From the NCBI GenBank assembly GCA_036171775.1, contig JAVHRR010000021.1, forward strand, positions 1 through 41,097: DNA of 41,097 nt, read 5' to 3'. Below, in pieces: positions 2,386-36,596 of the stretch. The stretch is from Minisyncoccota bacterium. GTDB lineage: Bacteria > Patescibacteriota > Minisyncoccia > Phycocordibacterales > GWA1-40-21. The notes beneath the pieces were generated by a model. That model ran no database searches. It saw only the letters and a program-made list of their open reading frames with translations, and was not told where the DNA came from. A program made the translations under genes and the position numbers. Numbering within the stretch: position 1 is the first letter of the stretch; every line of letters starts with the position of its first letter.

Positions 2386-2418
2386 ACTTGTTTTTGAGAC
2401 AAGCTTATTCCTCTTGGT

Positions 2419-2892: not shown

Positions 2893-3617
2893 GTTGTTCC
2901 TCCTCCTTCTTCGCTTAGTACGTACTTCACTATCCCGATGACTTGCGCTATCTTTCCATCGATTCCGCGTTTGCCATCGATAACTGTGTGATGCTCGTGT
3001 TCCTGCCACGCCGCTTTTGTAGCTAGCTCAAGCTGTTGAGCTCTCTCCAAAGGTTCGAAGCGCGTTTCGTTGTTTGCGTTCCCATATTTCTCGGGGCAAA
3101 CAACTGACAGCGATTCAAGGTGTATAACAGCATTGTATCTGGTGAGTTCTTTTTCAGCGACCAGCTTGTTCTTATCACAGAACTCTTTTATGCCGCCGGG
3201 TGTGTATGCGGCGCCGTCGAGAGTGCCGCGATCGCATATTATTACCCCAGCACCTTGTGCCCCAGCCACTAAAGCTGAAGCGTCCTCTATGGCCCTTTGC
3301 AGAGGAAGAACAGCTGCTTGCAAGCAAGACTGCCATTCCTCACTCCACTCCAGATCTTTTCCAGGTACCGGAAACCCCCCTGAAAGTAACATCGTTGCCA
3401 CTTCAGGTACGAAACACACTTTGTTTCCGAACTCTTCACGAAGTGCAGAAAGAATAGTTGTTTTCCCGCTAGACGGACCTCCAGTTAGTACAATCCGTTT
3501 CGCCTGGTAATTCTTCTCTCCGGTGAACTGAGCCAGCTTGAAGGCGTCCACAACGCTTTCATATGGCAACCCAAGACTCGTAGCTACACTTTTTAGTACT
3601 GCGTTGTTTATTTTCAT
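2880..3617 (-). CDS. AAA_28 (NadR/Ttd14-like) P-loop kinase/ATPase
   Basis: RIVLTGGPSSGKTT, VPEVAT, IICDRGTLDG, RYNAVIHL, NETRFE; AAGGAGG SD; overlaps the CYTH start. Confidence 0.88.
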   Translation of the reverse strand: MKINNAVLKSVATSLGLPYESVVDAFKLAQFTGEKNYQAKRIVLTGGPSSGKTTILSALREEFGNKVCFVPEVATMLLSGGFPVPGKDLEWSEEWQSCLQAAVLPLQRAIEDASALVAGAQGAGVIICDRGTLDGAAYTPGGIKEFCDKNKLVAEKELTRYNAVIHLESLSVVCPEKYGNANNETRFEPLERAQQLELATKAAWQEHEHHTVIDGKRGIDGKIAQVIGIVKYVLSEEGGGTTCKK

Positions 3618-4182: not shown

Positions 4183-4263
4183 AGGCCCGCCGTATATCGG
4201 CGGGCCTGTTTTTCTGCCTATTTTTATAAATAAAATCGCCGAGCCCTGTAAGAGGCTCGGCGA
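4183..4263. terminator. two back-to-back intrinsic terminators (+ 4183-4213; - 4232-4263)
   Basis: AGGCCCGCCG/CGGCGGGCCT plus T-tract; TCGCCGAGCC/GGCTCGGCGA preceded by an A-tract. Confidence 0.75.
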
Positions 4264-4305
4264 ACGAATAGTTTTATAAAGCGTATTCAGGCTTCTGTTT
4301 GCGTG

Positions 4306-4929
4306 TCAGAAACTAGTTCCGATTGTTGCAAACAATTTCTCAGATCCTGAGGTAGGGTTTTTCATCCCCCACAGTTTTACATAAACCCCGTGTGAAAGGT
4401 CTACACCGATCACAGGCCCTAGGTCTAATACGGCGTCAGCTCCTGAAGTACTCCATTCCCAGTACAGCTGCTCGCCGAAGCCTACCTGCAAGCGCTCTGT
4501 GACTTTCCAGAGCGCCTCGGTCCAGTGATATGCAAAACTCGGACTATCTTTCTCTGTACCGAAGGTCATCTCGTTCATGGTTATCCATGATAAGACCTTA
4601 CCCCCGTTTTCAATGTACAGTTCGGCAGATGTCGCCTTATACTCTTCTGACCACACTACTCCAACTGCTGGAGTGATGATCATCGAGTCATTCTTTTGGA
4701 ACGATTTGCCTATAAAAATACTAGGCGCACCAGACCAATCGAAGTTTGAGCGAACATCTACAAGAAAGCGTCCTGTGTCATAGGTCATCCACGGGATGAC
4801 GAGTGTGCTTTGCTTACGCTCTGTCATCACATTCATTGAGACATCCCCCTCTCCAGCAAAAACGAACGCGCGACAGAAGAGTACGAGCAATGTCACAGCG
4901 ACTGCTAAAATTATCAACAATTTTCTCAT
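4306..4929 (-). CDS. secreted protein, possible beta-barrel fold
   Basis: N-terminal signal peptide, aromatic-rich amphipathic strands, C-terminal Phe (ATIGTSF); AAGGAGG SD. Confidence 0.7.
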   Translation of the reverse strand: MRKLLIILAVAVTLLVLFCRAFVFAGEGDVSMNVMTERKQSTLVIPWMTYDTGRFLVDVRSNFDWSGAPSIFIGKSFQKNDSMIITPAVGVVWSEEYKATSAELYIENGGKVLSWITMNEMTFGTEKDSPSFAYHWTEALWKVTERLQVGFGEQLYWEWSTSGADAVLDLGPVIGVDLSHGVYVKLWGMKNPTSGSEKLFATIGTSF

Positions 4930-11792: not shown

Positions 11793-11864
11793 TCCGGAGT
11801 AGCTCAGCGGTAGAGCAATCGCCTGTTAAGCGATTGGTCACAGGTTCGATCCCTGTCTCCGGAG
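11793..11864 (+). tRNA. tRNA-Asn(GTT), CCA not encoded; island integration site
   Basis: TCCGGAG/CTCCGGA acceptor stem, ATCGC-CTGTTAA-GCGAT anticodon arm, GGTTCGATCC T-arm. Confidence 0.97.
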
Positions 11865-11879
11865 CAGTTAGATTTGGTG

Positions 11880-11914
11880 AAAGCGACCTGCCCCCGTCTG
11901 GGTAGGTCGCTTTT
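11880..11914. terminator. bidirectional terminator after tRNA-Asn
   Basis: AAAGCGACCTGCCC...GGGTAGGTCGCTTTT. Confidence 0.8.
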
Positions 11915-12341
11915 ACTTTATTTTGGTCTTATTAGTACCTTTAATCTCTTTCCATGAGTATTGAGTCACTTTACCTTTTTTATCTACAGAAAAAACATAA
12001 AGTAGTAATTTTTTAGCAACTTGCCAAGGAATACGTCGAAGGGCTATTTTTGCACTCACTTCTGGTAACCCTAATGCATAATAATTTCTAGTAGAGCCGC
12101 CGGATTTCATTCTTGTAACAATTTGACCTAGTGAATAAACAAAAGCCACTTCATCTCCCTGTCTTATCTTACCCTCACCTTTTGCTTCTATAAAAAAATA
12201 TCTAGAATATTTAAAATTTTTAGCTTTTATGTCTACTCCATGATCATACAATCCACCGAATTCAAAATGACCCCAACCATTTGCTGATAGCCATTTAATA
12301 ATTGAATGTTTTACAAAATCCTCAGATATTTTTTTATTCAT
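11913..12341 (-). CDS. small PD-(D/E)XK restriction-endonuclease-like protein
   Basis: SEDFVK...GVDIKAK...FIEAKG catalytic pattern. Confidence 0.78.
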   Translation of the reverse strand: MNKKISEDFVKHSIIKWLSANGWGHFEFGGLYDHGVDIKAKNFKYSRYFFIEAKGEGKIRQGDEVAFVYSLGQIVTRMKSGGSTRNYYALGLPEVSAKIALRRIPWQVAKKLLLYVFSVDKKGKVTQYSWKEIKGTNKTKIK

Positions 12342-12404
12342 AATTATTTATTTAAATCTTTCCTTAGCAATAACCTTTCTTGTTAGTTTGTGCTTAGTTT
12401 CGTC

Positions 12405-13319
12405 TTATTTTATAAGATCCACAAATCTTACAACCTTATTTTTACTCCAATCCATAATTTTTACATACCTTCCATTATGTTTATTTGGTCTATTATATTT
12501 ACAACCTTCACACTCATATTTCTCAACTTTACCAGGTATTTCACCGAAGAGTGTTAATTCACTAGGAATAACCTTATTTTCATGACGACAGCTCATAGGA
12601 ACAACATACCTGAGGCCATCCATTTGGAAAATATTCCAACTAATAATTTCGGCAAATTCTTCTTGTATTTTGAGTGTTGGTCGTCCATTAAACTGAGCCT
12701 TGTAATAATCAATAAACGTGTAAAGTAAATTCTCACGCGCAAGTAGAACGTTATCCCCCTGCCAATCATAGCCATAACTTGCCTTAAAGACCTCTTTTGC
12801 CCAAAATATCCATTCTTTTTTATCTTGGCAATATTTCGATAGTATTTTTAATTTTTTATCTAAAAAACCAACACGTTTATTTATTGGAATTATTTTTCCA
12901 GTATGTGCGGTAGTATCATAGCGACTCACTATAAAAGGTGCTTCCCCACACGTAATTTCTAGTTTGAGTTCTTTCACATATTCTTGCCAATTATTTTTAT
13001 CATGTAATTGGTTTTCTACTGCCTTATTAATTTGATTTATAGTTTTAAGTGGTGTAAAAACTTCAGCCTTATCTTTAGTACGGCGACGCTGCTCTTCCAA
13101 GCTCTTGGCTGCACGCGGTTGTATAAGTAATCCATTTTTGCCAGTCACTAGAGCAGGCGCAATACATTTTTTAGATAAATACTCTTTACCGCGCTCTTCA
13201 TACGAATCTGTTGCCCAGATAATATTCTTCTTTGTTGTTTGATCAATAAGCAAAATATCAAGCAAATCACCAGTTTTACGTAGAATATTTTCAAGTATAT
13301 CAATATTTGGCCTATACAT
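12405..13319 (-). CDS. R-M associated methyltransferase-like subunit
   Basis: LLIDQTTKKNIIWATD, RTKDKAEVFTP, LEITCGEAPF (motif I-like), YGYDWQGDNVLLAREN, WNIFQMDGL. No NPPY motif; C-terminal CEGC. Confidence 0.82.
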   Translation of the reverse strand: MYRPNIDILENILRKTGDLLDILLIDQTTKKNIIWATDSYEERGKEYLSKKCIAPALVTGKNGLLIQPRAAKSLEEQRRRTKDKAEVFTPLKTINQINKAVENQLHDKNNWQEYVKELKLEITCGEAPFIVSRYDTTAHTGKIIPINKRVGFLDKKLKILSKYCQDKKEWIFWAKEVFKASYGYDWQGDNVLLARENLLYTFIDYYKAQFNGRPTLKIQEEFAEIISWNIFQMDGLRYVVPMSCRHENKVIPSELTLFGEIPGKVEKYECEGCKYNRPNKHNGRYVKIMDWSKNKVVRFVDLIK

Positions 13320-13324
13320 GATAA

Positions 13325-16300
13325 TTAGTCAAAATAACCAACAATATTCTCCTCAGACTTTTCTTGAATATTCTTCAAAATAAAATTCTTAATTGTGTCG
13401 GGTATTTCATACTTTTTAATTAGTTCAATATCAATTTCCTTAATTGATTTTTTCCACCACGTTTCAGAATAATTCTGTACAGGAACAGCTGCCCAAGCAG
13501 TAGTTGAATGCTGGGAATGCTTATTAAGATATAAGAGTGCTCGTGCGAACTTGGTCATTAAGAATTTTGCGTGTTTTTTTGCATCCGTAATAGTATTGAA
13601 GGGGCCCTGTTCTTGGTAAGTCTCAGTAGAGATTTCATGAGGCTTACCTACTATAACATCAGAATAAGCACCGCCCAGACCTGTACCCTCTGACATATTT
13701 CCCCAAGCATATGGAACAAATACTTTAAATTTATCAAAGGCTTTAGTTTTCCTTGGTATCGGGTAATCCTTTTCTAAGTGACACACCATTCCAGAAAGAC
13801 CGTATAATTTAATGTCGTCTACATTTCGTTTTTCTTTACTTATTGGTGGTAGACAATATTTAGCAGGATCTTTAATTACATCCGTGCGTAAACCATATGG
13901 CTTGAGTACTGATGTAATTGATTGCATAGGAGAAAAGTTATTAAATGCCATGACTATTTTTGCCATTTCTCTAATCTCTTTAGGTTTACTGTCATGATTC
14001 TGCTCGGTTCGAAGTAATGTTATTTGAGGGTTCTTCCCATCTGTATAAATTTTTTGTTTACCTTTTAAGCCGTTGTTATAACTATGCTTCCACAAAATTA
14101 TGTTCGTCCATTCTACTCCGAGGATGCCAGGAAAGACATTCTGCCGATTATCTATAAAGACTATCTGAGGATCTTCCTTGATATCTTTATTATTAAGTAG
14201 CCTTAAATTATTACCGTTCTTGGGGTCCTGCCATCCAGTTGGAAAAATTAACGAAACATTTTCACCAAGCTCACGGCTTGCTAAATAAAAATAAGGGTAA
14301 ATCTGCTGATGATTTTCTCCTTGATATGGGGGATTTCCTACGACTGCTGTAAATTTCATATTTTTTCCAAATTTATTTTTAATTAAATCATACAAAGCAT
14401 TTTGATTTTGAGGCACTAATGTATCTTCGTTCTCAAAATATACAAAGTTCTTTTCTACCTTATACCTAACTTTTTTTAATTCTGGCTGTCCACGCATAAA
14501 GCCAAAAATGTTATCGCTAGATATTTAATGTAATATTTTTCTTGGCGCAAAACCGTAAACTTGGTGCGTTAATATATGTTCCAAGCGTTTATACTTATTG
14601 GGTATTTGGCGCTCTAAATTATTATACAGCCTTTTGACTATTTCAGTTATAAACAACCCTGATTTCATGTATGGATCAAAGAATGTGTGGTCTTTAGATT
14701 TAAATATGCCTGGATTCTGCTTTTCAAGGATATCGATTATTATCTTAACAACAGGTTTTGGAGTGTATATCTGGTTAGTTTGCTGCGGAGGGATATAATC
14801 AAAGATATCTAAACCGCTATCATTTTCATAATAATTTGCTAGCTCTGCTTTACGACTTAAAAATTCAGCAATTGAGGCATTAAAGACTTCTTCATTAAAA
14901 AGGTTATGCTTATCACGCAGTTCTTGAAACTGTTCTTTGGTAATACCGACAAGTTCTTGAAAGGTTGTGGAATCTATATATTTTTCAAAATTATCGAGTT
15001 TGGTATCTGGCTTACCGTATGCCATCAAAATCATTGGAATAGCACGGGCAAAGTAACGCAGGTGATCATGAATTGAATTCTCTTGTTCAATTTTTTCCTT
15101 ATCGGCCTGTTTTTCGAGCTTTATTTTTGTATCTGAAGGGGGTAAGTCATCAATAGTTGGAAGTCGATCTGTTGGTATATCTGGGTTGTCTTGTATTAAT
15201 TCCTCATATTTTTTCTTACCCAAGATTGATTCATTTAGAATAAGATTACCATCATCGTCGTACTCCAATTGTGGCTCAGTTATAGGATTTTTGTTTTTAT
15301 CATGTTCCACACGCCCTTTTTTAATAGTACCCATTTCATTCAATATCTCTCGAGCGCTAGCGGGCAGATGAAAAATATTGCCAATGTTGAAAAGTTTATT
15401 TGAAGTAATAAATTTTCCGTCAACGATCTCCTGTGTCATCAACTTAAGAGGCATAGTAACAACCTCGTTGGCATCGAGCTCTTTCATCTCACCGTATTCA
15501 TCTTCAGCTACCACAGTCAAGAAGTTGAGTAATTTTTTTACCTTATCTTTAGCTCCTTCGCCACCTCCGATAACACTCTTGGCGTAATCTTGAAATATAA
15601 GCAATAGTCTGTCTGGTGCAAAGTCAAATACATAACAGTTTTCTTTTACCATGTCATTACCACCTTCATCCTTGTAACGCCAAGGATTTTGTCCGCGGAA
15701 AGCAGCTTGAAGATACTTGGTGGCAGAAGTCTTACCACCCTCAGCACCATAAAGCATCAATACCGCAGTCCACGGCTTTACAGTTACACCAGTTGTAAGT
15801 TGACCACATGAAAGTGTGATAGTTTTTGTTTCAAGTGATTTTTTATCCTCTCCAATAATTTTTTTGATCTTATCTAGTGCGGTTTTACCTTCATGTTCAG
15901 TATCACCCTTAGCAGCAGCATCAATAATTTCATAATCTGCAAAAATCTTGCGTGAAGGAGTGTTCTCCCCCTGCTCCTGCATGAGTTTTTTAAGTGCTTT
16001 TACTGCAGAAACACCCGGTAATAGCCAAAATGTATGTCTAAGTTCATCACGAATTTCTCTATCAGCGAACGGGAAAGGTCGAGCACTTTGGTTATTTTTA
16101 CTGTTAATGCCAAACATATTATCTAGAAACTTTAATACCATTTCTTCATATACAAACTTGGTCTGTGAGGTCTTAAACAGTTCGTTGAGATCAAATGCGT
16201 ATTCACCATCGGCAACAGTGGCATTGAGTGTTTTAGAAAGTCTGTATGCAAACATATTCATGCGAGGAAGTTCGTAGTAAGGATTTTCGCCATCAGTCGG

Positions 16301-17353
16301 ATCCCAGTTTTCCTTGGCAGATTGTTCATCCTCGTAAGTCCAGTTAAAGATTTGTTTGGTATTGAATTTTTTACTTGTTAGTGCCTTAAACGGTGTACCT
16401 GAAAGATGGAGCGTAAAGTCAGCACGCAGATTTTTAAAAAGTTTATAAGCGTTTTCAGTTTCGGTCGCTTCATGACTTTCGTCTATAATGAAGAGATCCC
16501 AGGATTCATTAAAAATCCATTGATTCTTTTGCTTAAAAGCTTCGGAATTATCCGTCTCTCTACCTTTAATATCCTGCAATGATATAAAAAAAATCGTTGA
16601 CTCTCCATTTTTTATGGTAGCTTTAGTTTCACTAACATTTAGCGCACGACCTTGTAGATTACCTCCGGTAGTAATGTGCTTATTGTCTTTTGTAGAACCG
16701 AACTTAAAGATTCCTTTAGGTTGAATAAACTGTCGATAATCTGTATACCAAGAGTCAGAAATAGCTGGACGATTTGTGACAATAAGTACTTTTTTGGCAT
16801 TAATTTTCTCGGTGAACCAGTAACTAGTTAAAGTCTTTCCAAACCGTGGCTTAGCATTCCAAAGAAATTCACGCTTCCCATTGAGTGAGTTATTCCAATA
16901 TGCATAAGTTTGATCAATAGCATCCTGTTGTTCATCGCGAGGCTTAACGCTCAAGTCAATTTTATTTAGAATATCAGTATCAAAACCTTTCAAGTTTTTG
17001 CGTGCTTCTATGGCTTCGATAGCTTCCTTTTTTGTCATTTTATACCATTCCGAAAAACGTTCACTTTTAGAATTTTTCTTTTTCTCACGCTCATACTTTC
17101 CAGTAGCGTCAATTATCGCATGAACTTCATAATCACGGAATGATTTGCCATTTTTATCAATTGCTTCAGTTGTATAGAGTGTTTCCGCTTTAATATTATC
17201 AGCTTCATTTTGATCTTTAACACGACCAGAATTAATACCGGTTTGGTCACCAATTTTTAACCAACCTAAATGTTCTTTACTATCAGGGTGATGATAGACA
17301 TAAATTACTTTTTTCTCCTTACCTGTAGCTTTGATACTATTCATATAAATCAA
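13325..17353 (-). pseudogene. fused restriction-modification enzyme (nuclease, SF2 helicase, N6-adenine MTase, TRD; Eco57I-like), interrupted by one in-frame TAA at 14525-14527
   Basis: ORFs 14525-17353 and 13325-14497 are in the same frame, joined as ...FAPRKILH*ISSDNIFGFMRGQ. Upstream part has YVY..LKIGD (GIY-YIG/T5orf172-like), AKPRFGKT, DESH and FFDPYMKSG; downstream part has VVGNPPYQ. Confidence 0.82.
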
Positions 17354-17515
17354 ATATTTAGGCTCTTTTTGCCATAATTTGATTAAATTCTAGCATACTT
17401 ACTTATCAAAAAACAGTCGTTTGTCACAACTAAATTTTCAAAAAATAAATTAAATTACTTTTTTGTCACAACAAAACTAGATCGAGAGCGAATTTTTATC
17501 TCAATAATGTATAAA

Positions 17516-18832
17516 TTAATAATAAATTTTTTTATCCTTAATTTTTAACCTACTTTTTAGACATTTTAGTAATTCTCTCTTTGCTTCTCGTGTACCATTT
17601 TTAAGTATATGCTTGGTATAATTTCTTACGTCTGCATCAATAGGTTTATTATCAAATTCTGTTTCTTTACCCAGAACCATGTAACTAAATTGTTGATATT
17701 TTTGGATTTCTTTTTGTATTTCTTCTTTTATTCCTATTTCATCAATATCTATCTTGTCTATGATCTCTAATAGTTGAATTACAAGATCTTCTTCTCTTAT
17801 TGTTTTTTCTTTACAGTACCTATCTGCTCCATGAGTGCAATGATAATATACATATCGATGGGTTTTCCCATTTTTGCAGTGTTTAAATTTTTCTTCTGCA
17901 CTTATACCCGAACCACAAGCTCCACAGAAAAATAGTCTGGTAAAATCAAATTCGTTTGTTCCAGGATGTCTGCGCGGTGGAGCTTCTAAGTTTGCCCGGG
18001 CTTTTAAATACAATTCTTTTGTAATAATTGCATCGTGAGCACCTCTATACCATTTTCCGCTTTTCATAGGATATTCAAATTCACCATAATAATAAGTTTC
18101 CTTAAGAGTTGTGTAAATAATACTCAAGACAATTCTTTTACCTGATCGTGTTGTAAAATTTTTTTCTTTATTTAACCATGTAAGTAAGTCTCTACCGCTA
18201 ACATTGTCGAAAGCAACTTTTTCAAACATTTCTTTTATTATAGGGGCTCGTTCGGGATCAATGAGGACTCTTTTCTTTCCTTTGTCAGCATACTTATCAT
18301 GTATATATCCAAGCGGTGCCATTCCCGGTCTATATCCTTGTTCGCATTTAGCTCTTAATCCCCTTTTTACATTTTCCCCTTTATGATCGTTTTCTAGTTT
18401 TGCCTGTGAACACAAAATCATTAAAAGAAATTTCTCATTTGGAGAATTTGTAAATCTCTGGCCATGAGTTCTTATATCGATCATCTTTCCTTGATCCATA
18501 AGGTCAACAATTTGACCAAGATCTCCTGCATTACGACTTATTCTTGAAGGATCCCAAGCAATTATTCCATTAAACCTGCCTGATTTAATATCAGCTATAA
18601 GTTCTTGATATACAGGTCGTTGCCCTGAGTCCTTGGCTGAGTGAGATTCCATTTTGACCTCAACTACATTAAGTCCTTCTTTGGTCGCCATATCCATCAT
18701 TTCTTTGACTTGAGAGTCAATAGATAATGCCTGCAGCTCATCTTGCTCTGATGATTTTCGTGCATAAAGGCAGTATCTGGTAGGTACTACGACTTTTGGT
18801 ACAAATACTCGTTCTTGCAACTGAGTTTCCAT
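17516..18832 (-). CDS. large serine recombinase (resolvase, recombinase and Zn-ribbon domains)
   Basis: YCLYARKSSE..Q..SIDSQ, ESHSAK..GQRPVY, SRISRN, GYRPGMAPLGY, HDAII, FCGACG...YYHC...C. Confidence 0.95.
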   Translation of the reverse strand: METQLQERVFVPKVVVPTRYCLYARKSSEQDELQALSIDSQVKEMMDMATKEGLNVVEVKMESHSAKDSGQRPVYQELIADIKSGRFNGIIAWDPSRISRNAGDLGQIVDLMDQGKMIDIRTHGQRFTNSPNEKFLLMILCSQAKLENDHKGENVKRGLRAKCEQGYRPGMAPLGYIHDKYADKGKKRVLIDPERAPIIKEMFEKVAFDNVSGRDLLTWLNKEKNFTTRSGKRIVLSIIYTTLKETYYYGEFEYPMKSGKWYRGAHDAIITKELYLKARANLEAPPRRHPGTNEFDFTRLFFCGACGSGISAEEKFKHCKNGKTHRYVYYHCTHGADRYCKEKTIREEDLVIQLLEIIDKIDIDEIGIKEEIQKEIQKYQQFSYMVLGKETEFDNKPIDADVRNYTKHILKNGTREAKRELLKCLKSRLKIKDKKIYY

Positions 18833-18892
18833 ACATCAATCAATGACGCATGCCATCTAGTAAGTCTAGGTCTTAAAAGTTGATAATTATGC

Positions 18893-19579
18893 CTATTTCA
18901 GGTCTTGTTTTAATGCAGTTAATATTAATCCAGCCTCAACGTCTAAAGTGTCATCTATAACATTAGCTGGTATATGTTTAATATTTATATATTTAGGTCC
19001 CAAAGCAACAACGGGTCTTAACATATTTATCTGTGCTCTTTTAAAATCATTATCCAGTAGATGTTCAAGTTTTTTAAAAAAAGAATTGATACTTTTTTTG
19101 TATGAATCTATTCCATATACTTTCGATTCAATTCCTGTATTTATTAATTTAATAGTACTGTCAAAAATAAACGTCGGTTCAAATTCAACTGCTTCTAATA
19201 AAGAATTAAACTTTTTGCATGCAGAAACCGCAATATCAATTTGTTGTGATAACGTAAAGTTTATTCCTTTCTTTAAAACAAAGATTCTTTCTTCATTGAT
19301 ATAAACTTTATTAAATTTAGAATGCTGAAATACATGAAATTTTTTATCTTTTTTATCCAAATCTAAATTTTTGCGTACACTGGAAATATAATCGATTAAA
19401 TCTTTAACGGATTCTTCTGCGTCACGAGAAATCATAAGGAACATATCTTCAATTTCTTTTTTGTTGTTTTTTAGGCACTTATTTTTTTCATATAACTCCT
19501 TTAAATACCAAAGTGTGAGCGATGAAAAAATTGCTAAAAATGATCCTATTAATGCCTGATATTCATTTATAAATTTCAT
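18893..19579 (-). CDS. hypothetical protein with an N-terminal TM helix
   Basis: 228 aa; YQALIGSFLAIFSSLTLWYL; third gene of the RT operon. Confidence 0.75.
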   Translation of the reverse strand: MKFINEYQALIGSFLAIFSSLTLWYLKELYEKNKCLKNNKKEIEDMFLMISRDAEESVKDLIDYISSVRKNLDLDKKDKKFHVFQHSKFNKVYINEERIFVLKKGINFTLSQQIDIAVSACKKFNSLLEAVEFEPTFIFDSTIKLINTGIESKVYGIDSYKKSINSFFKKLEHLLDNDFKRAQINMLRPVVALGPKYINIKHIPANVIDDTLDVEAGLILTALKQDLK

Positions 19580-19595
19580 AGTAAATAATAATTAT

Positions 19596-20327
19596 TTATA
19601 ACTTTAACGTCTTCTTCTTTTCCCTACTGCCAAATATGTCCATAATTATATTTCCCACTCGACTTAGTGTAATATTAATACCACCTCCATCAACCTCAGC
19701 TTTATATTTGCTTGAATTAGGATTTTCACGTAATTTTTTATAATCATCCTCATCATCAACCCTAACATCCACAGGCTCGTATTCTAAATCAAACAGACCA
19801 GAGCCTATCAAACCTCTAACGTCTTCACTGTTCATAAAATCTTTTGCTTTATTCAAAAACCACTGTAAATCATAATTTGTTATTTTTTGAAGAACATTAG
19901 AAGTTTTTAAAAAATCATCATAACTAATTTTACCGTTAACAAAAAACTTAAAAACGTTCGCGACTCTTTCGGAATTTTCGAAATCATTGCAACTATCTAT
20001 AATGTAAAGCAATTTTTCCCCAACTTTAACTCGATATTTTTTAGATTCATCAATCTCTTTTATTATTTTATTTCTATCCTCAACAGAAACATTCTTTAAA
20101 CCATTCAGAAAAGAGATAATTTTCTTCAAAAATAATTTATCATGTATATTAGCACCGAGCTTTGTAATTCCTATTACAGTTCCAACGATAGGCAAACTCT
20201 GAACAGTTGGATCTTTAATAATTGAATCTAAAGCTAACTCTGTAATATCAATAGCAATTCCTTTTAAATCGGTATCTTTTAGTGTTGAATCAAAAGATTC
20301 TTGTATTGTAATATTATTGTTTTCCAT
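19596..20327 (-). CDS. hypothetical helical protein (possibly Abi-alpha/DUF4393-like)
   Basis: 243 aa; starts 12 nt after the RT stop; LPIVG...DKLFLKKIISFL pattern. Confidence 0.75.
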   Translation of the reverse strand: MENNNITIQESFDSTLKDTDLKGIAIDITELALDSIIKDPTVQSLPIVGTVIGITKLGANIHDKLFLKKIISFLNGLKNVSVEDRNKIIKEIDESKKYRVKVGEKLLYIIDSCNDFENSERVANVFKFFVNGKISYDDFLKTSNVLQKITNYDLQWFLNKAKDFMNSEDVRGLIGSGLFDLEYEPVDVRVDDEDDYKKLRENPNSSKYKAEVDGGGINITLSRVGNIIMDIFGSREKKKTLKL

Positions 20328-20339
20328 ATATAACCTAAA

Positions 20340-21989
20340 TTATTTTTTTGATTGTTTTATCAATTGTCTATATCCAAAAACACTAATAATTTTATATAGT
20401 GGTATTTCTTTTTGCTTACCATTATTTACTAAAAAAATTGTTTCATCATTAAGAACTATTTTGCTTTTATTTATATCAAAAAATGATTCAATCAACCAAT
20501 TAGACTTATATTTTTTAATAATCTTATTTGTTATTTTTTTATCTATCTCTAGCTTACATCTTCTAGTAATATACAAAGTCCAAATTAATGGAAAAATTTC
20601 GTCTTTTTCTAGAAAGCTTTCTATAAGTCTTACTAAATAATCTTGAATACATGTTTTAACTTCTTTGTTAGAAGTTCCTTTATAACAATAGTAAATAAAT
20701 GCTAAAAACGATGGCCACGCACTAGGAACTAGTTTACACAACGTACTAAAATGTGAAAAAACTGCAATATAATTTTCTTCAATATCCACCAAGTGTGGGT
20801 TTGCATCTGTTACTTTCTTTTTTATTTCTATTTTTTCGATACCTTCTCTTATAAAGTACCCGAGGATGGCTTTTATTATATACTGATCTTTGTACTTTTT
20901 ATAAAGGTCACGAGTAGTTTTTAACCAAAAAATTATATCCGATTCATCTAATTCAAAAATCTTTTCTTTTTTATTAAGTTTTTGATCAATTTCATTTTTA
21001 ATTTGTTTAAGTTCCACTTTCCAATACTTTGTATCTTCAAGTGAATCTACGTCGGAACAAAAAGTTTTGTCGTCATTTACGCCTAGGTGGTACTCATCGA
21101 GTATTTTTTGCATTTCCATCCGAATTTTATCAGCCAAATCCTGATTCTTTGTCAAAAAAACATAATCATCCTTAAATCTAAAGCCAATGTATTTATTACT
21201 TTGTTTAATAAATTTTTTTGAAAGTTCTTTGTCGATTGATCTTAACAATATTTCAGAACTAAAGTCTGATGTATATGGACCGATAAGAATACCTTTAGTT
21301 CTATTTCTGTTCAACTTTCTTGTTAATTCATCGAGCTTATTTGCTGGATAATTATAATTATGAAATTTACATTTATCACGCCCTTTGCATAAACATGTAT
21401 TATCATGACGTGTTCTTTTGTCCAATGCCCATGCAAGTGAATGGACATAAATACTTGGATAAAAATCTTTTATATCGAGAAAAACACAATGAGTATAGTC
21501 TCTTAGCAATGACTGTAGATCAATTTCTGATAGTACCTTGTGATTACTAATACCAATTTCTGATCTTTTTTTGCCTTCAATAAAAAGAGGTACACTATAG
21601 GGAATTATATTATCTTTTTTTTCATCTAGCGTTAAATGTTTTTTAAATATTTGCCAATTTTCTGAAACAAATTTCGTTAAATAAAGATGATTTATAAAAG
21701 GTGGAACAGATAAAGTTCTTAGTGTATATTTTGTTTTTGGAAAATACAATAAAGTTGGTTTGCCGTCGGGAATATATTTTGAATAATCAATTTTTTTAAG
21801 ATATTTTTTAACAGATGCGTTTTTAGCTAATCCGCATGAAAGAAAAAAATCTGACGGCAGAAATTGTTCCTCTGGAAAATAACCGTCATTAATAAAATAG
21901 TCAGAAATTTTTTCTTTAGTTAATTTATTAAGGTTATTATTTATTTCATTAAACCTCTTATTCTTTGTTTTAATGGTGTAACTGCTCAT
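20340..21989 (-). CDS. UG/Abi-type (defence-associated) reverse transcriptase with an alpha-helical C-terminal region
   Basis: GYFPE, FPKTKYTLRTLSVP, LDIKDFYPSIYVHSLAWAL, GILIGPYTSDFSSEI, FRFKDD, LGVNDDKT. Start is ATG 21989 or TTG 21995. Confidence 0.9.
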   Translation of the reverse strand: MSSYTIKTKNKRFNEINNNLNKLTKEKISDYFINDGYFPEEQFLPSDFFLSCGLAKNASVKKYLKKIDYSKYIPDGKPTLLYFPKTKYTLRTLSVPPFINHLYLTKFVSENWQIFKKHLTLDEKKDNIIPYSVPLFIEGKKRSEIGISNHKVLSEIDLQSLLRDYTHCVFLDIKDFYPSIYVHSLAWALDKRTRHDNTCLCKGRDKCKFHNYNYPANKLDELTRKLNRNRTKGILIGPYTSDFSSEILLRSIDKELSKKFIKQSNKYIGFRFKDDYVFLTKNQDLADKIRMEMQKILDEYHLGVNDDKTFCSDVDSLEDTKYWKVELKQIKNEIDQKLNKKEKIFELDESDIIFWLKTTRDLYKKYKDQYIIKAILGYFIREGIEKIEIKKKVTDANPHLVDIEENYIAVFSHFSTLCKLVPSAWPSFLAFIYYCYKGTSNKEVKTCIQDYLVRLIESFLEKDEIFPLIWTLYITRRCKLEIDKKITNKIIKKYKSNWLIESFFDINKSKIVLNDETIFLVNNGKQKEIPLYKIISVFGYRQLIKQSKK

Positions 21990-22149
21990 ATTCAATAAAG
22001 TATTCTATATACAAAATATGATCTTTAAGACTGCTAAAATTTAGTCAAAAATACTGTTGACAACCCCACTTCGCAAGGCACTCAACTTAAGCTAAGGTAT
22101 AGCACAATATCGTTTTTTACGATAGAATATCAATACAATTAAATAAAAG

Positions 22150-22340
22150 ACGGCCTAACCCCTTTAGTTTACTAGAGGATATGGTTGCAAACCCCGCTAG
22201 AGAATAAAGAACTCCTCGTCAGAGTCACTCTAGCGGGTCATATCTGGAAACGGGTATGGGTGGGGCCGAAAGGTTTCATCGCGATGGCGGGGAGCTCTTT
22301 GTTCACGAAGACTCTTCTCATTGCTAAAACCCGCTAGAGT
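22150..22340 (+). ncRNA. structured leader / c4-like antisense RNA candidate
   Basis: 20-bp closing helix (22202-22221 with 22285-22304), two GAAA-capped hairpins, and internal ACTCTAGCGGGT complementary to both upstream and downstream CCCGCTAGAG. Confidence 0.65.
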
Positions 22341-23414
22341 ATGTCAATAATAATTTCAACTAATGGCGATAAGGCTGTTAGATTAGATAAAACTTCTTTT
22401 GATAAAGAGAAGTTTCTCCAAGAATATATTTATAAGAATCCTGAAAGTATTCCTCTTTATGATATTAAAGAAGATATCAGATTACTTGTTTTGGCTCGCG
22501 AATTTAGAACTGAAAGTGGACCGATTGATGCCATCGGTATAGATGGATCAGGAGAACTATACATAATCGAAACAAAACTCTACACAAATGCTGATAAAAG
22601 AAATGTTATTGCTCAAGCACTAGATTACGGAGCATCTCTTTGGAATCATTCAAACGATTTTAATGAATTTTTGGCCACTTTAGATGAACATACACAAAAA
22701 GTATTTAAACTTAAAACAATAGAAAAGATTAAAGAGTTTTTTGGACTAACAGACGAAGATGTTCAGTTAGTGATAGAAAAAGCCAAGAGTAATCTTAACG
22801 ATGGAATCTTTCATTTCGTTGTTTTAATGGACAGAGTAGACGATAGACTCAAAGATCTTATACGTTTCGTAAACCAGAACAGTCAATTTGATATCTATGC
22901 TGTTGAATTTGAATATTACAAACACGAAAAACAAGAAATCATTATTCCTAAGATATTTGGTGCAGAGGTAAAGAAAGATATCGCAGTAAGTAGCTCTTCA
23001 TCAGGTGAAAGAAGAAAGTGGAATGAGGAGTTACTTCTCGCAGATGCAAAAAATAATTATTCTGACAAAGAGTACACAGCTTTCAAAAAGATTTATGATT
23101 TCTCAAAAGAAAAGGCGGATTATGTTAAGTATGGAACAGGTAATAAGTACGGATCATTTAATCCAGTGTTCGAGAAAATATGTTCAAGATCTCTTTATAC
23201 TTTGGGTACGGATGGAAGGATGTCATTTAACTTTGAATGGATTAAAAACAACGATATACAAGAAGTGGAGTTTATAGATAAGTATGCGAAAGCCATGAAG
23301 GATATTGGTTTTACTATTCCAGATAATTATAGAGAAGTTCGTCCAAGTGTCCTATCTGACGAATGGGCTAACAGAGCAGATGAATTTATTAAAGCAATCA
23401 GGAGCCTAATATAG
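22341..23414 (+). CDS. PD-(D/E)XK nuclease with a NucS/EndoMS-like nuclease domain
   Basis: EKFLQEYI, AREFRTESGPIDAIGIDGSGELYIIETK, RNVIAQALDY. Confidence 0.82.
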   Translation: MSIIISTNGDKAVRLDKTSFDKEKFLQEYIYKNPESIPLYDIKEDIRLLVLAREFRTESGPIDAIGIDGSGELYIIETKLYTNADKRNVIAQALDYGASLWNHSNDFNEFLATLDEHTQKVFKLKTIEKIKEFFGLTDEDVQLVIEKAKSNLNDGIFHFVVLMDRVDDRLKDLIRFVNQNSQFDIYAVEFEYYKHEKQEIIIPKIFGAEVKKDIAVSSSSSGERRKWNEELLLADAKNNYSDKEYTAFKKIYDFSKEKADYVKYGTGNKYGSFNPVFEKICSRSLYTLGTDGRMSFNFEWIKNNDIQEVEFIDKYAKAMKDIGFTIPDNYREVRPSVLSDEWANRADEFIKAIRSLI

Positions 23415-23895
23415 ATTGCTTTTCCTCATTGGTTAAATTATCATCTTTTTCAGAAAAATCAGTAATTATAAATTCAGTAGGTTTTTTTCCTTGTTTGGCT
23501 TGTTCATTTTCTTTTCTAAATTTTTCCATCTGATCTTCTGTTAGTTTTCTTGTTATTACTTCTATAGCAATTTTTCTTACTATTTCTGAGTCTTCAAAGA
23601 ATACATTTTCCATTCTTGGTTTAACATATCTCTTACAATTTCCACCTAACCAATACTTCATTGCCCAAGGTTCACCCTTAGTAGCTTGGCTTATCAATTT
23701 ACTTTCAACCAAGTCAGTTACAGAATCTCTGCCTCTCCAAAGACATTCGTCCATGTCGTCTGCAAAATTTTCCACTGTTTCTCTCCATTCATAAATAGTA
23801 GATTTTGCTATACAAGCTCTTTTTGCAGCAATTGATACGTTTGGGATTTCCTCGAGTATCTCCAGAAATTTTTTTCTTTCATTAGGCGTTTTCAT
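23398..23895 (-). CDS. HTH protein resembling a phage terminase small subunit
   Basis: KFLEILEEIPNVSIAAKRACIAKSTIYEWR...FADDMDE, DLVESKLI...GEPWAMKYWL; overlaps the methylase 3' end. Confidence 0.72.
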   Translation of the reverse strand: MKTPNERKKFLEILEEIPNVSIAAKRACIAKSTIYEWRETVENFADDMDECLWRGRDSVTDLVESKLISQATKGEPWAMKYWLGGNCKRYVKPRMENVFFEDSEIVRKIAIEVITRKLTEDQMEKFRKENEQAKQGKKPTEFIITDFSEKDDNLTNEEKQSILGS

Positions 23896-25219
23896 TTAAT
23901 TTAATAGCTTTTTTCCCAGTTAGATTTTCCCATCTCTTTTTTATTACTTCTGCATAGATGGGACACTTTTCCATGATGTAACATCTTCTTTTTAGCTTTG
24001 TTGCAGCTATAAGAGTAGAACCACTTCCACCAAACGGTTCAACTATAAGATCATCTCTCTTTGTTAAGACTTTGATGTATGGGATCAGAATTTCTATTGG
24101 TTTTGTTCCAAAGATAATTCCCTGCCCAGATGATTTTTCATCTGAAGCGATATTCTCTATGAAATCTGTAGGACAAATTTTCTTTCCAGCCTCATAACCT
24201 TCCCAATGAGGTTTACCAGACGTAGCAAATAATGCGGTCTCATATTCTTCTTGAAGTAATGGTTCATTTTCTGGTTCCATATTTAGTTCTACAGTTCCTG
24301 AACTACCAACAATTGCAAAGTCGTGTTTGTTAAAGAATTTATACTTAGCAGAAAATCCCTGAACTCTATTTGGAATGTGCCAGATAATTGTATTTCTATA
24401 TTTCCAGTGCTTTTCTAATTCATTCCATATTAATCTGAGATTTTTTGGATTCTCATAAATAATAATTGAAAAATCTGGTTTTTGAATCTTTGCCATATTG
24501 GCCATCCATAGTTCCGTAAAGTTATCAGGTAATGTTTCTGTTCCAATATAAACTCTGTCTCTCTTGTGACCAAAACCCGATGTAACTTCCCCATTCTTTT
24601 TCTTCTTTCCTTTTAAGTAATCTAAAACATAAGGGGGGTCTGTGAAGACCATACTAGCCTTTTCTGTTCCCATGAGTTTGAGTACATCTTCCTCCTTCAT
24701 GGAGTCACCAACGAGCAATTTAGAGCCATCTAGGTCATACATATCGCCTGTTTTAGCTTCTATTTCGCCAATTTCCATCTTAGCTAGTTCTTTCTCAATA
24801 TCGAACTCTTCAGGAACATCTTCGACTGCAAAAATGTCATCGATCTCTTCACTTGAGAATCCTACGTTAGATAATATGTTTTCATCAAACTCTGATAACA
24901 AATCTAGATCCCATTCACCTTGGTTCTTATTTAATCTCATATTCAACTCTTTTTCTTTTTCAATCGTAAGATCAACATAAACAACAGGCATTTCCTTAAA
25001 ACCAATCTCTTTACATACTTCTAATCTGAAATGTCCACCAATTACAATATTTTTTCTTTCACTATTACCGTTTGTAATAATTGGGTCAACATTTCCGAAT
25101 CTTTTTATGCTTTCTGTTAAATCTTTCTTTTGTTCTTCATCCCATTTTCTTGGATTGTATTCAGATGGAATTAATAAACTAATATCTACATACTCTATTT
25201 TTAAATTTTCTTTATTCAT
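23882..25219 (-). CDS. ParB/Srx-N domain fused to an N6/N4 DNA methyltransferase (phage-type)
   Basis: LIPSEYNPR, IGGHFRL, LLVGDS, FTDPPY, TKPIE, EPFGGSGSTLIA. Confidence 0.92.
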   Translation of the reverse strand: MNKENLKIEYVDISLLIPSEYNPRKWDEEQKKDLTESIKRFGNVDPIITNGNSERKNIVIGGHFRLEVCKEIGFKEMPVVYVDLTIEKEKELNMRLNKNQGEWDLDLLSEFDENILSNVGFSSEEIDDIFAVEDVPEEFDIEKELAKMEIGEIEAKTGDMYDLDGSKLLVGDSMKEEDVLKLMGTEKASMVFTDPPYVLDYLKGKKKKNGEVTSGFGHKRDRVYIGTETLPDNFTELWMANMAKIQKPDFSIIIYENPKNLRLIWNELEKHWKYRNTIIWHIPNRVQGFSAKYKFFNKHDFAIVGSSGTVELNMEPENEPLLQEEYETALFATSGKPHWEGYEAGKKICPTDFIENIASDEKSSGQGIIFGTKPIEILIPYIKVLTKRDDLIVEPFGGSGSTLIAATKLKRRCYIMEKCPIYAEVIKKRWENLTGKKAIKLNENA

Positions 25220-33073: not shown

Positions 33074-34900
33074 TTATTTATAACCTTTTGCTTGAATGTT
33101 AAACGCAGTGTAATACTTCCCTTTCAGTTTCAAAAGTTGTCTATGGTTTCCGCACTCAACAATTTCTCCTTTATCTAATACATATATTTTGTCAGCATTT
33201 CGTACGGTAGAAAAACGGTGTGAAATAATAATAACGGTTTTGTTAGTAAAGAATTTATAAATCTTTCCAAATATTTCTGCTTCCGAAACTGCGTCTATAG
33301 ATGCAGTCGGTTCATCAAATACCACCACTGGTGAATTACGATAAAAAAATCTTGCAATGGCAATCTTTTGCCATTGTCCTGTGCTTGGTCTTGTTCCGCC
33401 TTTAAATTTCTCACTTAATATCTGTTCGTATCCTTTCTTATAGTCACCTACAAAAGAATCAACATTGGCCTGTTCTGCGGCTGCTTTTATGTGAGCAATG
33501 TTTAATGATTTACTAGCTTCTCCCAAATGAATGTTTTCTTTAAGAGTCAAATATCCATATGTGTTGAAATCTTGAAACAGCACACCCAAATTTTTGTACC
33601 AATCTTCTATTTTGATTTCATTAATATTGATATCGTTCAATAAAATTTCACCTTTATCAATTTTGTAAAATCTACTCAAAAGCTTTACAAGGGTTGTCTT
33701 TCCAGCGCCGTTTTCTCCTACTATAGCTATCTTTTCTCCTGGTTTAATGTCGAAACTTAAATTTTTAATAACGTGCTTGTCTGCACCTGGATATTTAAAA
33801 CTAATATTATTAAATTTGATAGAAGGAGCATTTTCAAGCTTTGGTAATTTAATATTGCCATCTACTACCATAGTTTTCATTTCAAAAACCATCTTGATTT
33901 CTCTTGTTCTTGCAGATCGTTCGTAAAGTGAACTAAAATTGCTACCAAAAGATGACAGATTACCAACAAACATATCCAAAACTCTCATCTGGAAAGTGAC
34001 ATCTCCTATTGATATTATTTTGTAGAACAAATTCTTCAATATTGAAAAATATCCAAAAATACTTGCGATATCCGTAATAGAACCCAAAAAAAAGCCATAG
34101 GTCTGCCAACTTCTCATTATTTTTAAATCAACAGAGACATATCGTTCTGCAAATTCGGTGTAAACATTTCCTAACGATTTAAACGCAGAAGTTATTGTTA
34201 TTTCTTGTAGGTTTTCGGTATTGTTTAATGAACCGACCGCTGAGTTGGCTCTACGTCTGTTTTCAGTCTGTGAACGCCACCATTCCCAATCTTGTTTCAT
34301 ATGAATTCTATTAGAAATAAGCTCTGGTATAATTGCAAGAATGATAATCAAAGCGATAATTGGCATTATCTTTATGACGATAACTGATGCTGAAATCAGT
34401 ACAATAATTCTAGAAAAAAACATTATCATTCTTTCAAAGTCACCGCTAAGCGAGCCTATTGTGTCTTTTGCTCTTTGGACCTTATTAACAACTTCTGGGT
34501 TCTCTAATGTTTGAATTCCGAGCGAATTGATATGCTTAGCCAAAATTAACGGTACCGTATATCCTGAAGCTTGATTCATAACACTAGAGACGTAACCGTA
34601 AATAGAGTTTAAGGCAGAAATTGCCAAATTAAAAATAAGCAAAAGACCTAACAGTGGAATGGTGTCGTTAATATTTGAATTGGAGCTGCTAGCAATAATT
34701 ATTATTTTATCAATAAGTCTTGCGAAAATAAAAGCATTAAACAAAGGGCTAGTGTCTAAAATAGTCCTTATTACAATCTGCGCTGTAGCCGCCCAAGGAG
34801 AAAGCTTAAAATTAAAAACAAATAACCACTTGAGTGTGGCTAGGAATTCAAAGAAAGAAAGTGTCTGCTTCTTATTGTCTATTGTTTTATTATCCATCAA
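33074..34900 (-). CDS. ABC exporter, fused permease/ATP-binding protein
   Basis: N-terminal TMs; GENGAGKTT; variant signature PSTGQWQKIAIAR; VVFDEPT; ISHRFST. Confidence 0.95.
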   Translation of the reverse strand: MMDNKTIDNKKQTLSFFEFLATLKWLFVFNFKLSPWAATAQIVIRTILDTSPLFNAFIFARLIDKIIIIASSSNSNINDTIPLLGLLLIFNLAISALNSIYGYVSSVMNQASGYTVPLILAKHINSLGIQTLENPEVVNKVQRAKDTIGSLSGDFERMIMFFSRIIVLISASVIVIKIMPIIALIIILAIIPELISNRIHMKQDWEWWRSQTENRRRANSAVGSLNNTENLQEITITSAFKSLGNVYTEFAERYVSVDLKIMRSWQTYGFFLGSITDIASIFGYFSILKNLFYKIISIGDVTFQMRVLDMFVGNLSSFGSNFSSLYERSARTREIKMVFEMKTMVVDGNIKLPKLENAPSIKFNNISFKYPGADKHVIKNLSFDIKPGEKIAIVGENGAGKTTLVKLLSRFYKIDKGEILLNDININEIKIEDWYKNLGVLFQDFNTYGYLTLKENIHLGEASKSLNIAHIKAAAEQANVDSFVGDYKKGYEQILSEKFKGGTRPSTGQWQKIAIARFFYRNSPVVVFDEPTASIDAVSEAEIFGKIYKFFTNKTVIIISHRFSTVRNADKIYVLDKGEIVECGNHRQLLKLKGKYYTAFNIQAKGYK

Positions 34901-34987
34901 TAATTATATTAATTAATAACTAATAAATTGATTGCAACTAAACTGAGTCAAAGTATACCATATATACTAAATTAAAAAAAAGACATG

Positions 34988-35543
34988 AAAAAAGGGACAA
35001 CCGCAAGCGGCTGTCCCTTATTTAAAGTGTGAAAGTCTTCCTAGGTGGCTGTACACCTATGGGATGATATTGTCGCCAATTTCGTTGAGCTTTGTAGCCC
35101 ATTGATTTCGTTGACGTCGTACCTGCTAATTGGTTGTAAGCGGGTTTGACTGTTAATCAGGAAGAACTTTCTGCCTTGGCCAGAGTAGATATCAGGTTGG
35201 CAACCCGGTATCTTGTGCCTATAAAGACAGACCAGCGGTCCGTAGTTATTCTAGGGGATAAGAAAGTGTTTTAAAGACCTTGCGGTCAGTAACACTCAAG
35301 CGCGATGCCGGCTTGGGAACCTTTAGGGTTCGCCGAGCTTTGCATTGCGCTCCTGCACTTTTTCCTGTTCGCGGTTTTGGGCGACTCTATTGATGACTTG
35401 TTAAAGGCCATCTTAGTGGAAGCTTACGTCTGCGGTTGGTTCGGCTTGTCTTGTCTGCAAGTCGGACTCAGGCATCTGTCGTACGTGTACGAAGAAATTT
35501 GTTTGGCTTTAAAAGAACACTTCACTTACACTTTTTATGGTGT
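34988..35543 (-). ncRNA. candidate large (~550 nt) multi-hairpin RNA
   Basis: Minus-strand TTGACA (35572-35577) and TATACT (35550-35555); terminator 34988-35019; GC-rich with many hairpins; no minus-strand ORF of 60 aa or more. Confidence 0.55.
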
Positions 35544-35698
35544 CATACGAGTATAGACGATTATAAATTATTGTCAAACTTCACCTGTGGATAACTTTTT
35601 TAATACACCTTTGACAGAAATAGATTTCTTTTGTAAAGTATTTCGGGAATGTCATCATGATTTTCTTCGAGCAAAACAAATCAAGGGGGAAATTTAAA

Positions 35699-35875
35699 AT
35701 GTCAAAGAAAATGGATGAGAACGAAAAGAAAGTGAAGAAGCTTCTCAAGGATGGAGAATACGACAAGGCTTCAGAAAAGATCATCAAGCTTTCGAAAGAA
35801 AAGCAGACCGAATACTTCGATGTTCTCGTGCAGCTGCGGCTGAAGGCCGCCGAAAAAGAAGAAGTGGCCGACTAA
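35699..35875 (+). CDS. hypothetical small helical protein
   Basis: ATG 35699 after AAGGGGGA; followed by a terminator. Confidence 0.65.
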   Translation: MSKKMDENEKKVKKLLKDGEYDKASEKIIKLSKEKQTEYFDVLVQLRLKAAEKEEVAD

Positions 35876-35889
35876 GTCCGGCAAAGAAT

Positions 35890-35919
35890 AATGAGCGCCC
35901 ATTTATGGGCGCTCATTTT
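35890..35919 (+). terminator. intrinsic terminator
   Basis: AATGAGCGCCCAT-TT-ATGGGCGCTCATTTT. Confidence 0.8.
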
Positions 35920-35981: not shown

Positions 35982-36596
35982 ATGATATTGGCATCAATTG
36001 TTACCTTAATAATTATTTTTATAATAAATGTTATTCCAGCTTTCATGCCACCCACATGGATTTTACTATCCTTTGTGGGTTTTACTTTTAATTTTAATAA
36101 TTATGATCTTATTGTTATCTCTATTTTTGCAGCCATAGCTGCTACGTCAGGTAGAGCGGTACTCGCCATATTTGCAGACCGAATAATAAGAAATAAAATA
36201 CTGAGTGAATCTAGCAGGGACAATGTTGATGTTTTAAAAAACAATATTGAAAAAAAGAAAGCATTTACCTTTGGCTTTTTTCTTTTTTATGCATTTTCTC
36301 CGCTACCGTCGGGACAATTATTTTTGGCTTACGGTCTTACCGAATTAAAATTAATTTTTGCGATAGCGCCATTTTTTATTGGAAGACTGATAAGCTATTT
36401 ATTTTGGGTATTCACAGCCTCTGGGATTTCAGAGCTCACCAGCTTAACCAACCTACAGTCTGGATTTTTCTTTGGTGGATATTTTATTGTTGCCCAATTG
36501 TCGGCTTTATATTTAGTTTACTTATTTGTTAAAATTGATTGGAATATTTTATTTACTGAACGCAAAATTAAGTTTATAAAGAAAATCGTAGACTAG
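35982..36596 (+). CDS. DedA/VTT-like membrane protein
   Basis: NVIPAFMPPTW, ATSGR, FSPLPS, FFIGR; multiple TMs. Confidence 0.75.
   Translation: MILASIVTLIIIFIINVIPAFMPPTWILLSFVGFTFNFNNYDLIVISIFAAIAATSGRAVLAIFADRIIRNKILSESSRDNVDVLKNNIEKKKAFTFGFFLFYAFSPLPSGQLFLAYGLTELKLIFAIAPFFIGRLISYLFWVFTASGISELTSLTNLQSGFFFGGYFIVAQLSALYLVYLFVKIDWNILFTERKIKFIKKIVD

Follow-up and report, generated by a model that had tools for sequence, protein, structure and literature searches.

A candidate large structured non-coding RNA, with its own promoter and terminator, in a Patescibacteriota genome

Bacterial RNAs that are large, highly conserved and of unknown function are uncommon, and RNase P, OLE, ROOL and GOLLD have proved to be ribozymes, membrane particles or RNA cages. 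Here we consider a candidate RNA unit at positions 34990-35577, on the minus strand, of a 41,097-nt contig (JAVHRR010000021.1, assembly GCA_036171775.1; the whole stretch is called the window below) from a Minisyncoccota bacterium, where the unit is bracketed by a promoter and a terminator. The source genome (0.76 Mb in 50 contigs, 92% complete) is of a size typical of the Candidate Phyla Radiation (CPR)/Patescibacteria, a group that holds a large share of bacterial diversity. A previous reading of the sequence alone had proposed a large non-coding RNA that might represent a new class, and had named three outcomes that would speak against it: a match to a known family or a decayed coding sequence, folding no better than that of dinucleotide shuffles, and lack of transcription. 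None of the three applies and the proposal is supported.

Among the large RNAs already described, OLE is inherited vertically in Bacillota and acts with the OapA, OapB and OapC proteins at the membrane. ROOL and GOLLD have a scattered rather than lineage-wide distribution; known sources are Bacillota, the rumen and lakes, and prophages, close to tRNAs, are a frequent location. OLE is presented in PMC9723947 and PMC10898510 as an abundant RNA of ~600 nt with an ornate fold, blocks of invariant nucleotides and a function that is unresolved, and PMC12286853 describes ROOL and GOLLD as forming RNA-only homo-oligomers. The unit resembles OLE (RF01071) in its length, ornate predicted fold, invariant blocks and apparent abundance. 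With ROOL (RF03087) and GOLLD (RF01998) it shares a length of several hundred nucleotides, many hairpins, a transcription unit of its own and, as it appears, abundance as RNA. However, it does not match the OLE model and was not found in 25 species of the same genus; unlike ROOL and GOLLD, it resides in a CPR-like genome of 0.76 Mb, has no adjacent phage gene and gives no model match at E ≤ 10. A further comparison is with the VIPR vrRNA loci, which are likewise GC-rich, structured, promoter-driven and non-coding. The VIPR guide RNAs are defined, as set out in 10.64898/2026.04.26.720920, by 9-16 tandem YNNGG (GGY/NN) repeats. This array is missing in the unit: no more than two consecutive GGY at period 5 occur in 34900-35660, and the window has no run of three or more on either strand. 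A vrRNA locus was accordingly rejected. The proteins encoded next to the unit belong to other families or to none, no search having been aimed at vipr or at oapA, oapB and oapC. Nothing relevant was found in the literature that combines CPR/Patescibacteria with large structured RNAs, preprint supplements not being covered. The RNA is new at the family level, with no match in Rfam, in protein families or in the literature searched, while its general kind, the large orphan structured bacterial RNA, is already known.

The unit is represented in RNA libraries, and its flanks are not. A word search of public sequencing runs returned four groundwater runs, which are a possible source of the present DNA, two unlabelled runs and five metatranscriptome runs, the last two kinds with small word shares in each case; three runs with such small shares (X7, X9 and X10) are not counted as evidence. 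Four RNA runs from four studies were aligned over 34700-35900 and gave exactly one contig each. The contig from ice (X5) covers 35054-35485 (455 nt, depth 22.6, less than 90% alike) and that from a microbial mat (X11) covers 35063-35306 (244 nt, depth 3.3, 90-95% alike). Those from freshwater sediment (X6; 35221-35380, 209 nt, depth 2.7) and from an estuary (X8; 35220-35395, 191 nt, depth 4.5) are both 95-99% alike. All four, 191-455 nt long and with a depth of at most 22.6, are confined to 35054-35485 of the minus-strand unit. This conserved core of ~430 nt is the sole part covered by RNA contigs. The flanks serve as a silent-stretch control: contig depth is zero over 34700-35027 and 35520-35900, and no RNA contig aligns to either neighbouring gene (the exporter or the small gene beyond the promoter), to the terminator or to the promoter. 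X5 and X11 stop within the unit without continuing into dissimilar sequence, and X6 and X8 have short loose ends that are recognisable as a diverged form of the same RNA. Such solitary assembly across four habitats is the pattern expected of an RNA that is abundant and stable. Transcription of the unit is therefore supported by contigs of four studies, which are assembled contigs and not stranded reads.

The promoter and G-CUUG-C terminator that had been predicted to bracket a GC-rich minus-strand region are both in place. The promoter, of the sigma-70 type (TTGACA-16-TATACT, 35577-35550, minus strand), matches the consensus at 11 of 12 positions; its -35 hexamer TTGACA occupies 35577-35572 and is separated by a 16-nt spacer from the -10 hexamer TATACT at 35555-35550. 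Transcription would start near 35543. The RNase P RNA gene of the source genome has a comparable promoter, TTGCTA-17-TATAAT, which ends 8 nt before the RNA. The intrinsic terminator (35019-34992, minus strand) consists of a 12-pair stem, including 7 G-C pairs, a CUUG loop and the U tract UUUUUUCAUGUCUUUUUUUU. The predicted primary transcript would thus be ~555 nt long (34990-35543, minus strand), both ends being putative. Its G+C content is 0.466, and that of the core 0.486, vs 0.343 for the window; these values are comparable to those of the genome's own RNase P RNA (0.481) and LOOT RNA (0.50).

The minimum-energy minus-strand fold contains every hairpin named in the sequence-only reading, and the repeat ATTTCGTTGA is indeed present at 35079 and 35105. 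Starting from the 5' side of the best conserved part, the predicted minus-strand fold has a three-tier nested hairpin at 35298-35352 with the tip GAACC-CUAAA-GGUUC. This is followed at 35264-35297 by a hairpin closed by AGUGUU/AACACU, with an internal loop and the apical element GACC-GCAA-GGUC (35287-35276), the loop of which is a GNRA tetraloop when read on the minus strand. Because this hairpin is invariant among the contigs, its pairing gets no test from variation. A hairpin at 35221-35249, with the tip CGGACC-GCU-GGUCUG, is also invariant in the contigs. The next one, at 35187-35213, has GAUAC/GUAUC around CGGGUU-GCC-AACCUG and differs in length between contigs. An irregular rod with A-rich 2x2 internal loops occupies 35072-35115 and ends in the tip UGGGCU-ACAA-AGCUCA (35101-35086); the 10-mer UCAACGAAAU is present in it once on each strand. 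Finally, X5 and X11 end (at 35054 and 35063) at or just before a hairpin UAGGUG-UACAGC-CACCUA at 35042-35059. Compared with dinucleotide shuffles, the unit as a whole folds better, with z = -6.08 on the minus strand, z = -4.65 on the plus strand and 0 of 100 shuffles as good on either. For the core alone the values are weaker, z = -2.72 with 2 of 100 shuffles as good (minus) and z = -3.00 with 0 of 100 (plus). Folding energy therefore does not pick the strand; natural variation does.

The variation is read from aligner output, which omits differences near contig ends. Comparison of the four contigs reveals a near-invariant block of ~140 nt (35209-35348, minus strand). No difference is listed over 35209-35303 in any of them, although X5 is overall less than 90% alike, and the remaining 35304-35348 has a single one (35304, X8). 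The differences of X5 concentrate in two places. One is a variable region at 35400-35444 (minus strand), which holds 13 of the 27 listed X5 substitutions together with 1-base deletions at 35405 and 35428. The other is the hairpin at 35187-35213, which carries many insertions in X5. The loose end of X6 has a shorter version of this hairpin, GGGU-GCU-ACCC, and two changes in X11 keep its pairs (C-G to U-G and U-G to C-G). Elsewhere, X5 and X6 share the change 35349 C>U, after which this base is still paired with G35301, as U-G. In the rod tip, the pair U35096-A35091 is replaced by C-G in both X5 and X11, and the ACAA loop becomes GUAA (X5) or GCAA (X11), sequences that form GNRA tetraloops only in a minus-strand RNA.

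The listed substitutions were scored against the fold of the core, leaving out the X5 rows 35199, 35201, 35204 and 35207, which lie among scattered insertions. On the minus strand 9 of the changed pairs can still form and 4 cannot, in a set of only five sequences, too few for statistics. The four broken pairs are all in helices with a pair probability of at most 0.67, and pairing survives all seven changes in helices at or above 0.88. Among the pairs kept, the changes are mostly C-G to U-G, A-U to G-U or U-G to C-G. Scored on the plus-strand fold, the same changes preserve 5 pairs and break 9, every one of the nine in a helix with a probability of at least 0.87. The variation thus appears to preserve structure on the minus strand specifically, which points to that strand as the RNA. 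The G-U evidence for strand had previously been called mixed; the scored changes decide for the minus strand.

Coding constraint is absent from the unit. Its longest open reading frame, 83 amino acids on the plus strand, matches only itself among 5.8 billion proteins, and no protein relatives were found for a minus-strand frame of 41 amino acids. The earlier statement that there is no credible open reading frame is borne out, the two longest frames being without protein relatives. No conserved reading frame was found in the unit. X5 has 1-base indels at 35132, 35405 and 35428, the last two being the deletions mentioned above, which indicates that the unit is not coding because no reading frame would tolerate them. 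In a 33-amino-acid minus-strand frame the changes of X5 fall mostly at codon positions 1 and 2.

It appears probable that the unit is a stand-alone gene for a stable, abundant and intricately folded RNA, trans-acting, narrowly distributed and of an undescribed family. A stable RNA acting in trans is suggested by the combination of a promoter of its own with a strong terminator, rRNA-like conservation across a block of 140 nt, a hairpin at the periphery that varies, GNRA loops and accumulation of the RNA. Transcription of the minus strand would proceed from the unit's sigma-70-type promoter to its intrinsic terminator, giving a ~555-nt primary transcript that contains the ~430-nt core. By analogy with OLE, ROOL and GOLLD, the product may be a structural RNA acting in trans as the scaffold of a ribonucleoprotein or of an RNA-only assembly; its stability, any partner and its biological role are conjectured on this basis. 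A role as messenger or as leader of the next gene would be disfavoured.

A bolder proposal, to which we give slightly less than an even chance, is that this RNA is the first known of a new class of large structured RNAs that are very abundant. The class would belong to a narrow, barely sampled CPR lineage. It would stand out in metatranscriptomes from ice, estuary, sediment and mat, with its DNA almost absent from genome and metagenome collections, and it may function as an RNA-only assembly or a ribozyme and not as a regulator. Bolder still, and unsupported, is the idea that RNA sightings outnumber DNA sightings because the element also propagates as RNA.

Several points weigh against the stand-alone gene. 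The contigs cannot show strand, ends or level of the RNA, and RNA libraries may contain DNA. Of the five sequences known, four are partial contigs, and a true double change is seen at one pair only. The change G35370>U, in X5 and X6, breaks a pair predicted with a probability of 0.99 in the full-length fold; the small helix concerned is probably mispredicted or not conserved. The folding z-score of the core is modest (-2.7). No partner protein is known for the RNA, and no relative was found in any searched genome, including those of 25 species of the same genus, from which it follows that the RNA is not a core component of the lineage. Lastly, the exporter gene downstream of the unit has no detectable promoter of its own, which favours a leader.

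The candidate is tractable, given its defined borders, the ~140-nt near-invariant block, natural variants that fix the strand and evidence of RNA accumulation in nature. As a point of method, contigs from RNA libraries can expose relatives of an RNA gene that are invisible in every DNA collection.

A cis-acting leader is the rival that survives best, although we regard it as unlikely. In this model the unit is a very large 5' element, riboswitch-like or an attenuator, whose terminator controls read-through into the exporter gene. That gene (33074-34900, minus strand) encodes a fused ATP-binding cassette (ABC) exporter-type protein of 608 amino acids (ABC_tran, 9e-30), and its likely ATG, at 34897, is ~90 nt past the terminator. 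The arrangement is that of T-box and riboswitch leaders, where a transporter gene is immediately preceded, on its own strand, by a folded RNA with an intrinsic terminator, and no promoter-like site with at least 9 of 12 matches was found in the spacer between terminator and exporter. That the contigs cover the folded part and not the terminator would also fit a conserved sensor with a non-conserved expression platform. On the other hand, weak promoters can hide in AT-rich spacers, and an exact TATAAT stands just before the exporter ATG. The largest transcription-attenuation leaders are about half the size of the ~430-nt core; if the unit is a leader after all, no leader known for a transporter gene would come near it in size. 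Nor does it match any leader family. The terminator is strong, and inspection of the folds by eye gave no convincing antiterminator alternative.

The closest orthologues of the exporter bear on the leader from both sides. They come from four genomes of the same genus (loci L053-L056) and are 67-75% identical. In all four a co-directional frame lies ~10-35 nt upstream, so the exporter is normally co-transcribed with it, and here the RNA unit occupies that place. Conversely, what precedes these orthologues is other genes; there is no GC-rich block and no such element. No other gene of the window from 22 kb onward is found within 10 kb of the four orthologues. Either gene order is highly fluid, or the exporter itself moves.

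A second rival concerns the origin of the unit and is compatible both with a stand-alone RNA gene and with a leader function. In this view the unit arrived by horizontal transfer as the cargo of a mobile element, phage or satellite, or is what remains of one, and would be no chromosomal housekeeping RNA but, for instance, an anti-phage, addiction or replication-control RNA. We consider this improbable. In its favour are high identity across four distant habitats, the lack of conserved local gene order in the four same-genus genomes, a patchily distributed membrane protein nearby (see below), a segment with recombinase and reverse transcriptase genes 10-20 kb off, and the distribution of the unit in DNA. 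The genome draws searched are overlapping samples, and their negatives mean not found in those genomes. The source genome gave the only true BLAST match among 61 relatives, which cover 25 other species of the genus (two others had 31-44 nt), and among 401 genomes of the order (ten others had 19-44 nt). It was likewise the one genome matched among 401 of the class and among 401 of the phylum. A covariance model of the most conserved part (R1; 171 positions, 53 pairs), built from a single sequence, found only the source genome among 151 related genomes.

Against a mobile origin, no match was obtained in 50,697 phage and 72,556 plasmid records, nor in the 2.9 million viral contigs of IMG/VR, scanned three times for exact words. 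The words, of 20 letters, came from five places in the core and likewise had no genuine match in GTDB (one genome per species) or in JGI metagenome contigs. Four loci (L063-L066) recovered in two of the exact-word scans have only 20-22 letters in common with the unit and were rejected as chance matches. Neither terminal repeats nor target duplications were found around the unit, no mobility gene is adjacent, and a housekeeping gene of the YceG family lies between the unit and the mobile-looking segment. The collection contains no closely related sister of the source genome. Most simply, the RNA would be a feature of a narrow subclade that has been little sampled, or of a mobile entity in that subclade, and would be abundant enough to assemble where the cells are too rare for their DNA to do so.

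The genes on the promoter side of the unit are divergent from it. A small K/E-rich gene for a 72-amino-acid orphan (35700-35875, plus strand; likely ATG at 35700 behind AAGGGGG) has its own promoter-like site at 35611-35639. A terminator-like hairpin at 35890-35917, just past its stop, is called on the minus strand. Neither Pfam nor PHROG assigns the gene to a family, and no relative of it was found in 60 related genomes. It is followed by the gene for a polytopic membrane protein of 204 amino acids without Pfam family (35982-36596, plus strand). This protein is patchy: 69% and 59% identical proteins occur in another genus, yet only 1 of the 25 other species of the same genus has it. Counting the source, 5 of 61 genomes have the protein, and no such RNA was found beside its relatives (best E 0.65).

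It is very doubtful that the unit is a highly divergent member of a known family, be it RNase P, tmRNA, signal recognition particle (SRP) RNA, 6S RNA, a group I or II intron, OLE, ROOL, GOLLD, raiA, HEARO/omega RNA or VIPR. At the gathering score, Rfam 15 detects LOOT RNA and two tRNAs in the whole window and nothing in the unit. When 851 bases were searched on both strands with the Rfam 15 covariance models, permissive filters and E ≤ 10, the best match, to a microRNA family, had an E-value of 0.19. These permissive matches are all to eukaryotic or unrelated small families and far below gathering. OLE, ROOL, GOLLD, raiA, HEARO and all other Rfam 15 families were rejected accordingly. RNase P RNA (RF00010) does not match the unit, and the copy of the source genome is on contig 7 (131.9 bits). 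Likewise tmRNA (RF00023) has no match in the unit, ARAGORN finds none in the window, and the tmRNA of the source genome is on contig 47. The previous reading had seen no hallmarks of these two RNAs, correctly as it turns out, both being encoded elsewhere. The slots of SRP RNA and 6S RNA are formally open, as neither is detectable in the genome. However, 6S RNA (RF00013) is a rod of ~180 nt with a central bubble, and it does not match the unit, whose predicted fold is multi-branched and three times larger. SRP RNA (RF00169, RF01854) matches neither the unit nor the source genome, and no Ffh partner is detectable; with no detectable Ffh or FtsY, an SRP RNA is not expected there. A missed VIPR locus is opposed by the GGY count given above, and no nuclease or reverse transcriptase gene is adjacent to the unit. 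Together with the lack of protein relatives and the 1-base indels of the relatives, the search of both strands argues against the known family or decayed coding sequence that had been named as a refutation.

The status of SRP in this group is an observation in its own right. The models RF00169 and RF01854, as well as that of 6S RNA, detect nothing in the source genome, which also has no detectable Ffh M domain (PF02978/SRP_SPB), SRP54-type GTPase (PF00448), ffh or ftsY (NCBIfam; only a 14-bit match). RF00169 matches none of 41 genomes of the order (the source and 40 relatives), many of them 95-100% complete. PF00448 gives weak P-loop matches in 6 of the 41, one of them barely above the cut-off and inside an ABC protein. 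All controls for the SRP search were positive in 12-14 of 14 model genomes. Order-wide loss of SRP, if true, would be remarkable.

That the unit is a decayed coding gene, or a functionless GC-rich insert transcribed by accident, is scarcely credible: it has several short frames in different phases and is absent from relatives, but its two longest frames lack protein relatives, the short order-level matches lie in unrelated frames, and neither invariance of 35209-35303 in four habitats nor pair-preserving changes are expected of decaying DNA. A decayed GTPase gene, suggested by clustering of the short order-level matches, was rejected (ten unrelated frames, no protein-level match, best E 0.002 over 21 amino acids).

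Other parts of the window are also GC-rich, namely 2400-3600 and 4200-4800 (G+C 0.46-0.52). The former is coding and specifies an AAA_28 kinase-like protein and a weak CYTH-domain protein; the latter contains a 207-amino-acid frame without family (4306-4929). The mobile-looking segment of the window spans 11793-25219. It includes a tRNA-Asn gene (11793-11865), a 942-amino-acid helicase that carries a T5orf172 domain, a large serine recombinase (17516-18832), a reverse transcriptase, a weak small-terminase-like frame (23398-23895) and a ParB-DNA methylase fusion (23882-25219). LOOT RNA (RF03000) has three copies in the source genome, with Rfam scores of 66-77 bits: one in the window (22152-22277, plus strand), one on contig 6 (13971-14096) and one on contig 47 (12402-12539). 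The copy in the window sits between a reverse transcriptase gene (20340-21995, minus strand; RVT_1) and an orphan frame of 357 amino acids (22341-23414, plus strand).

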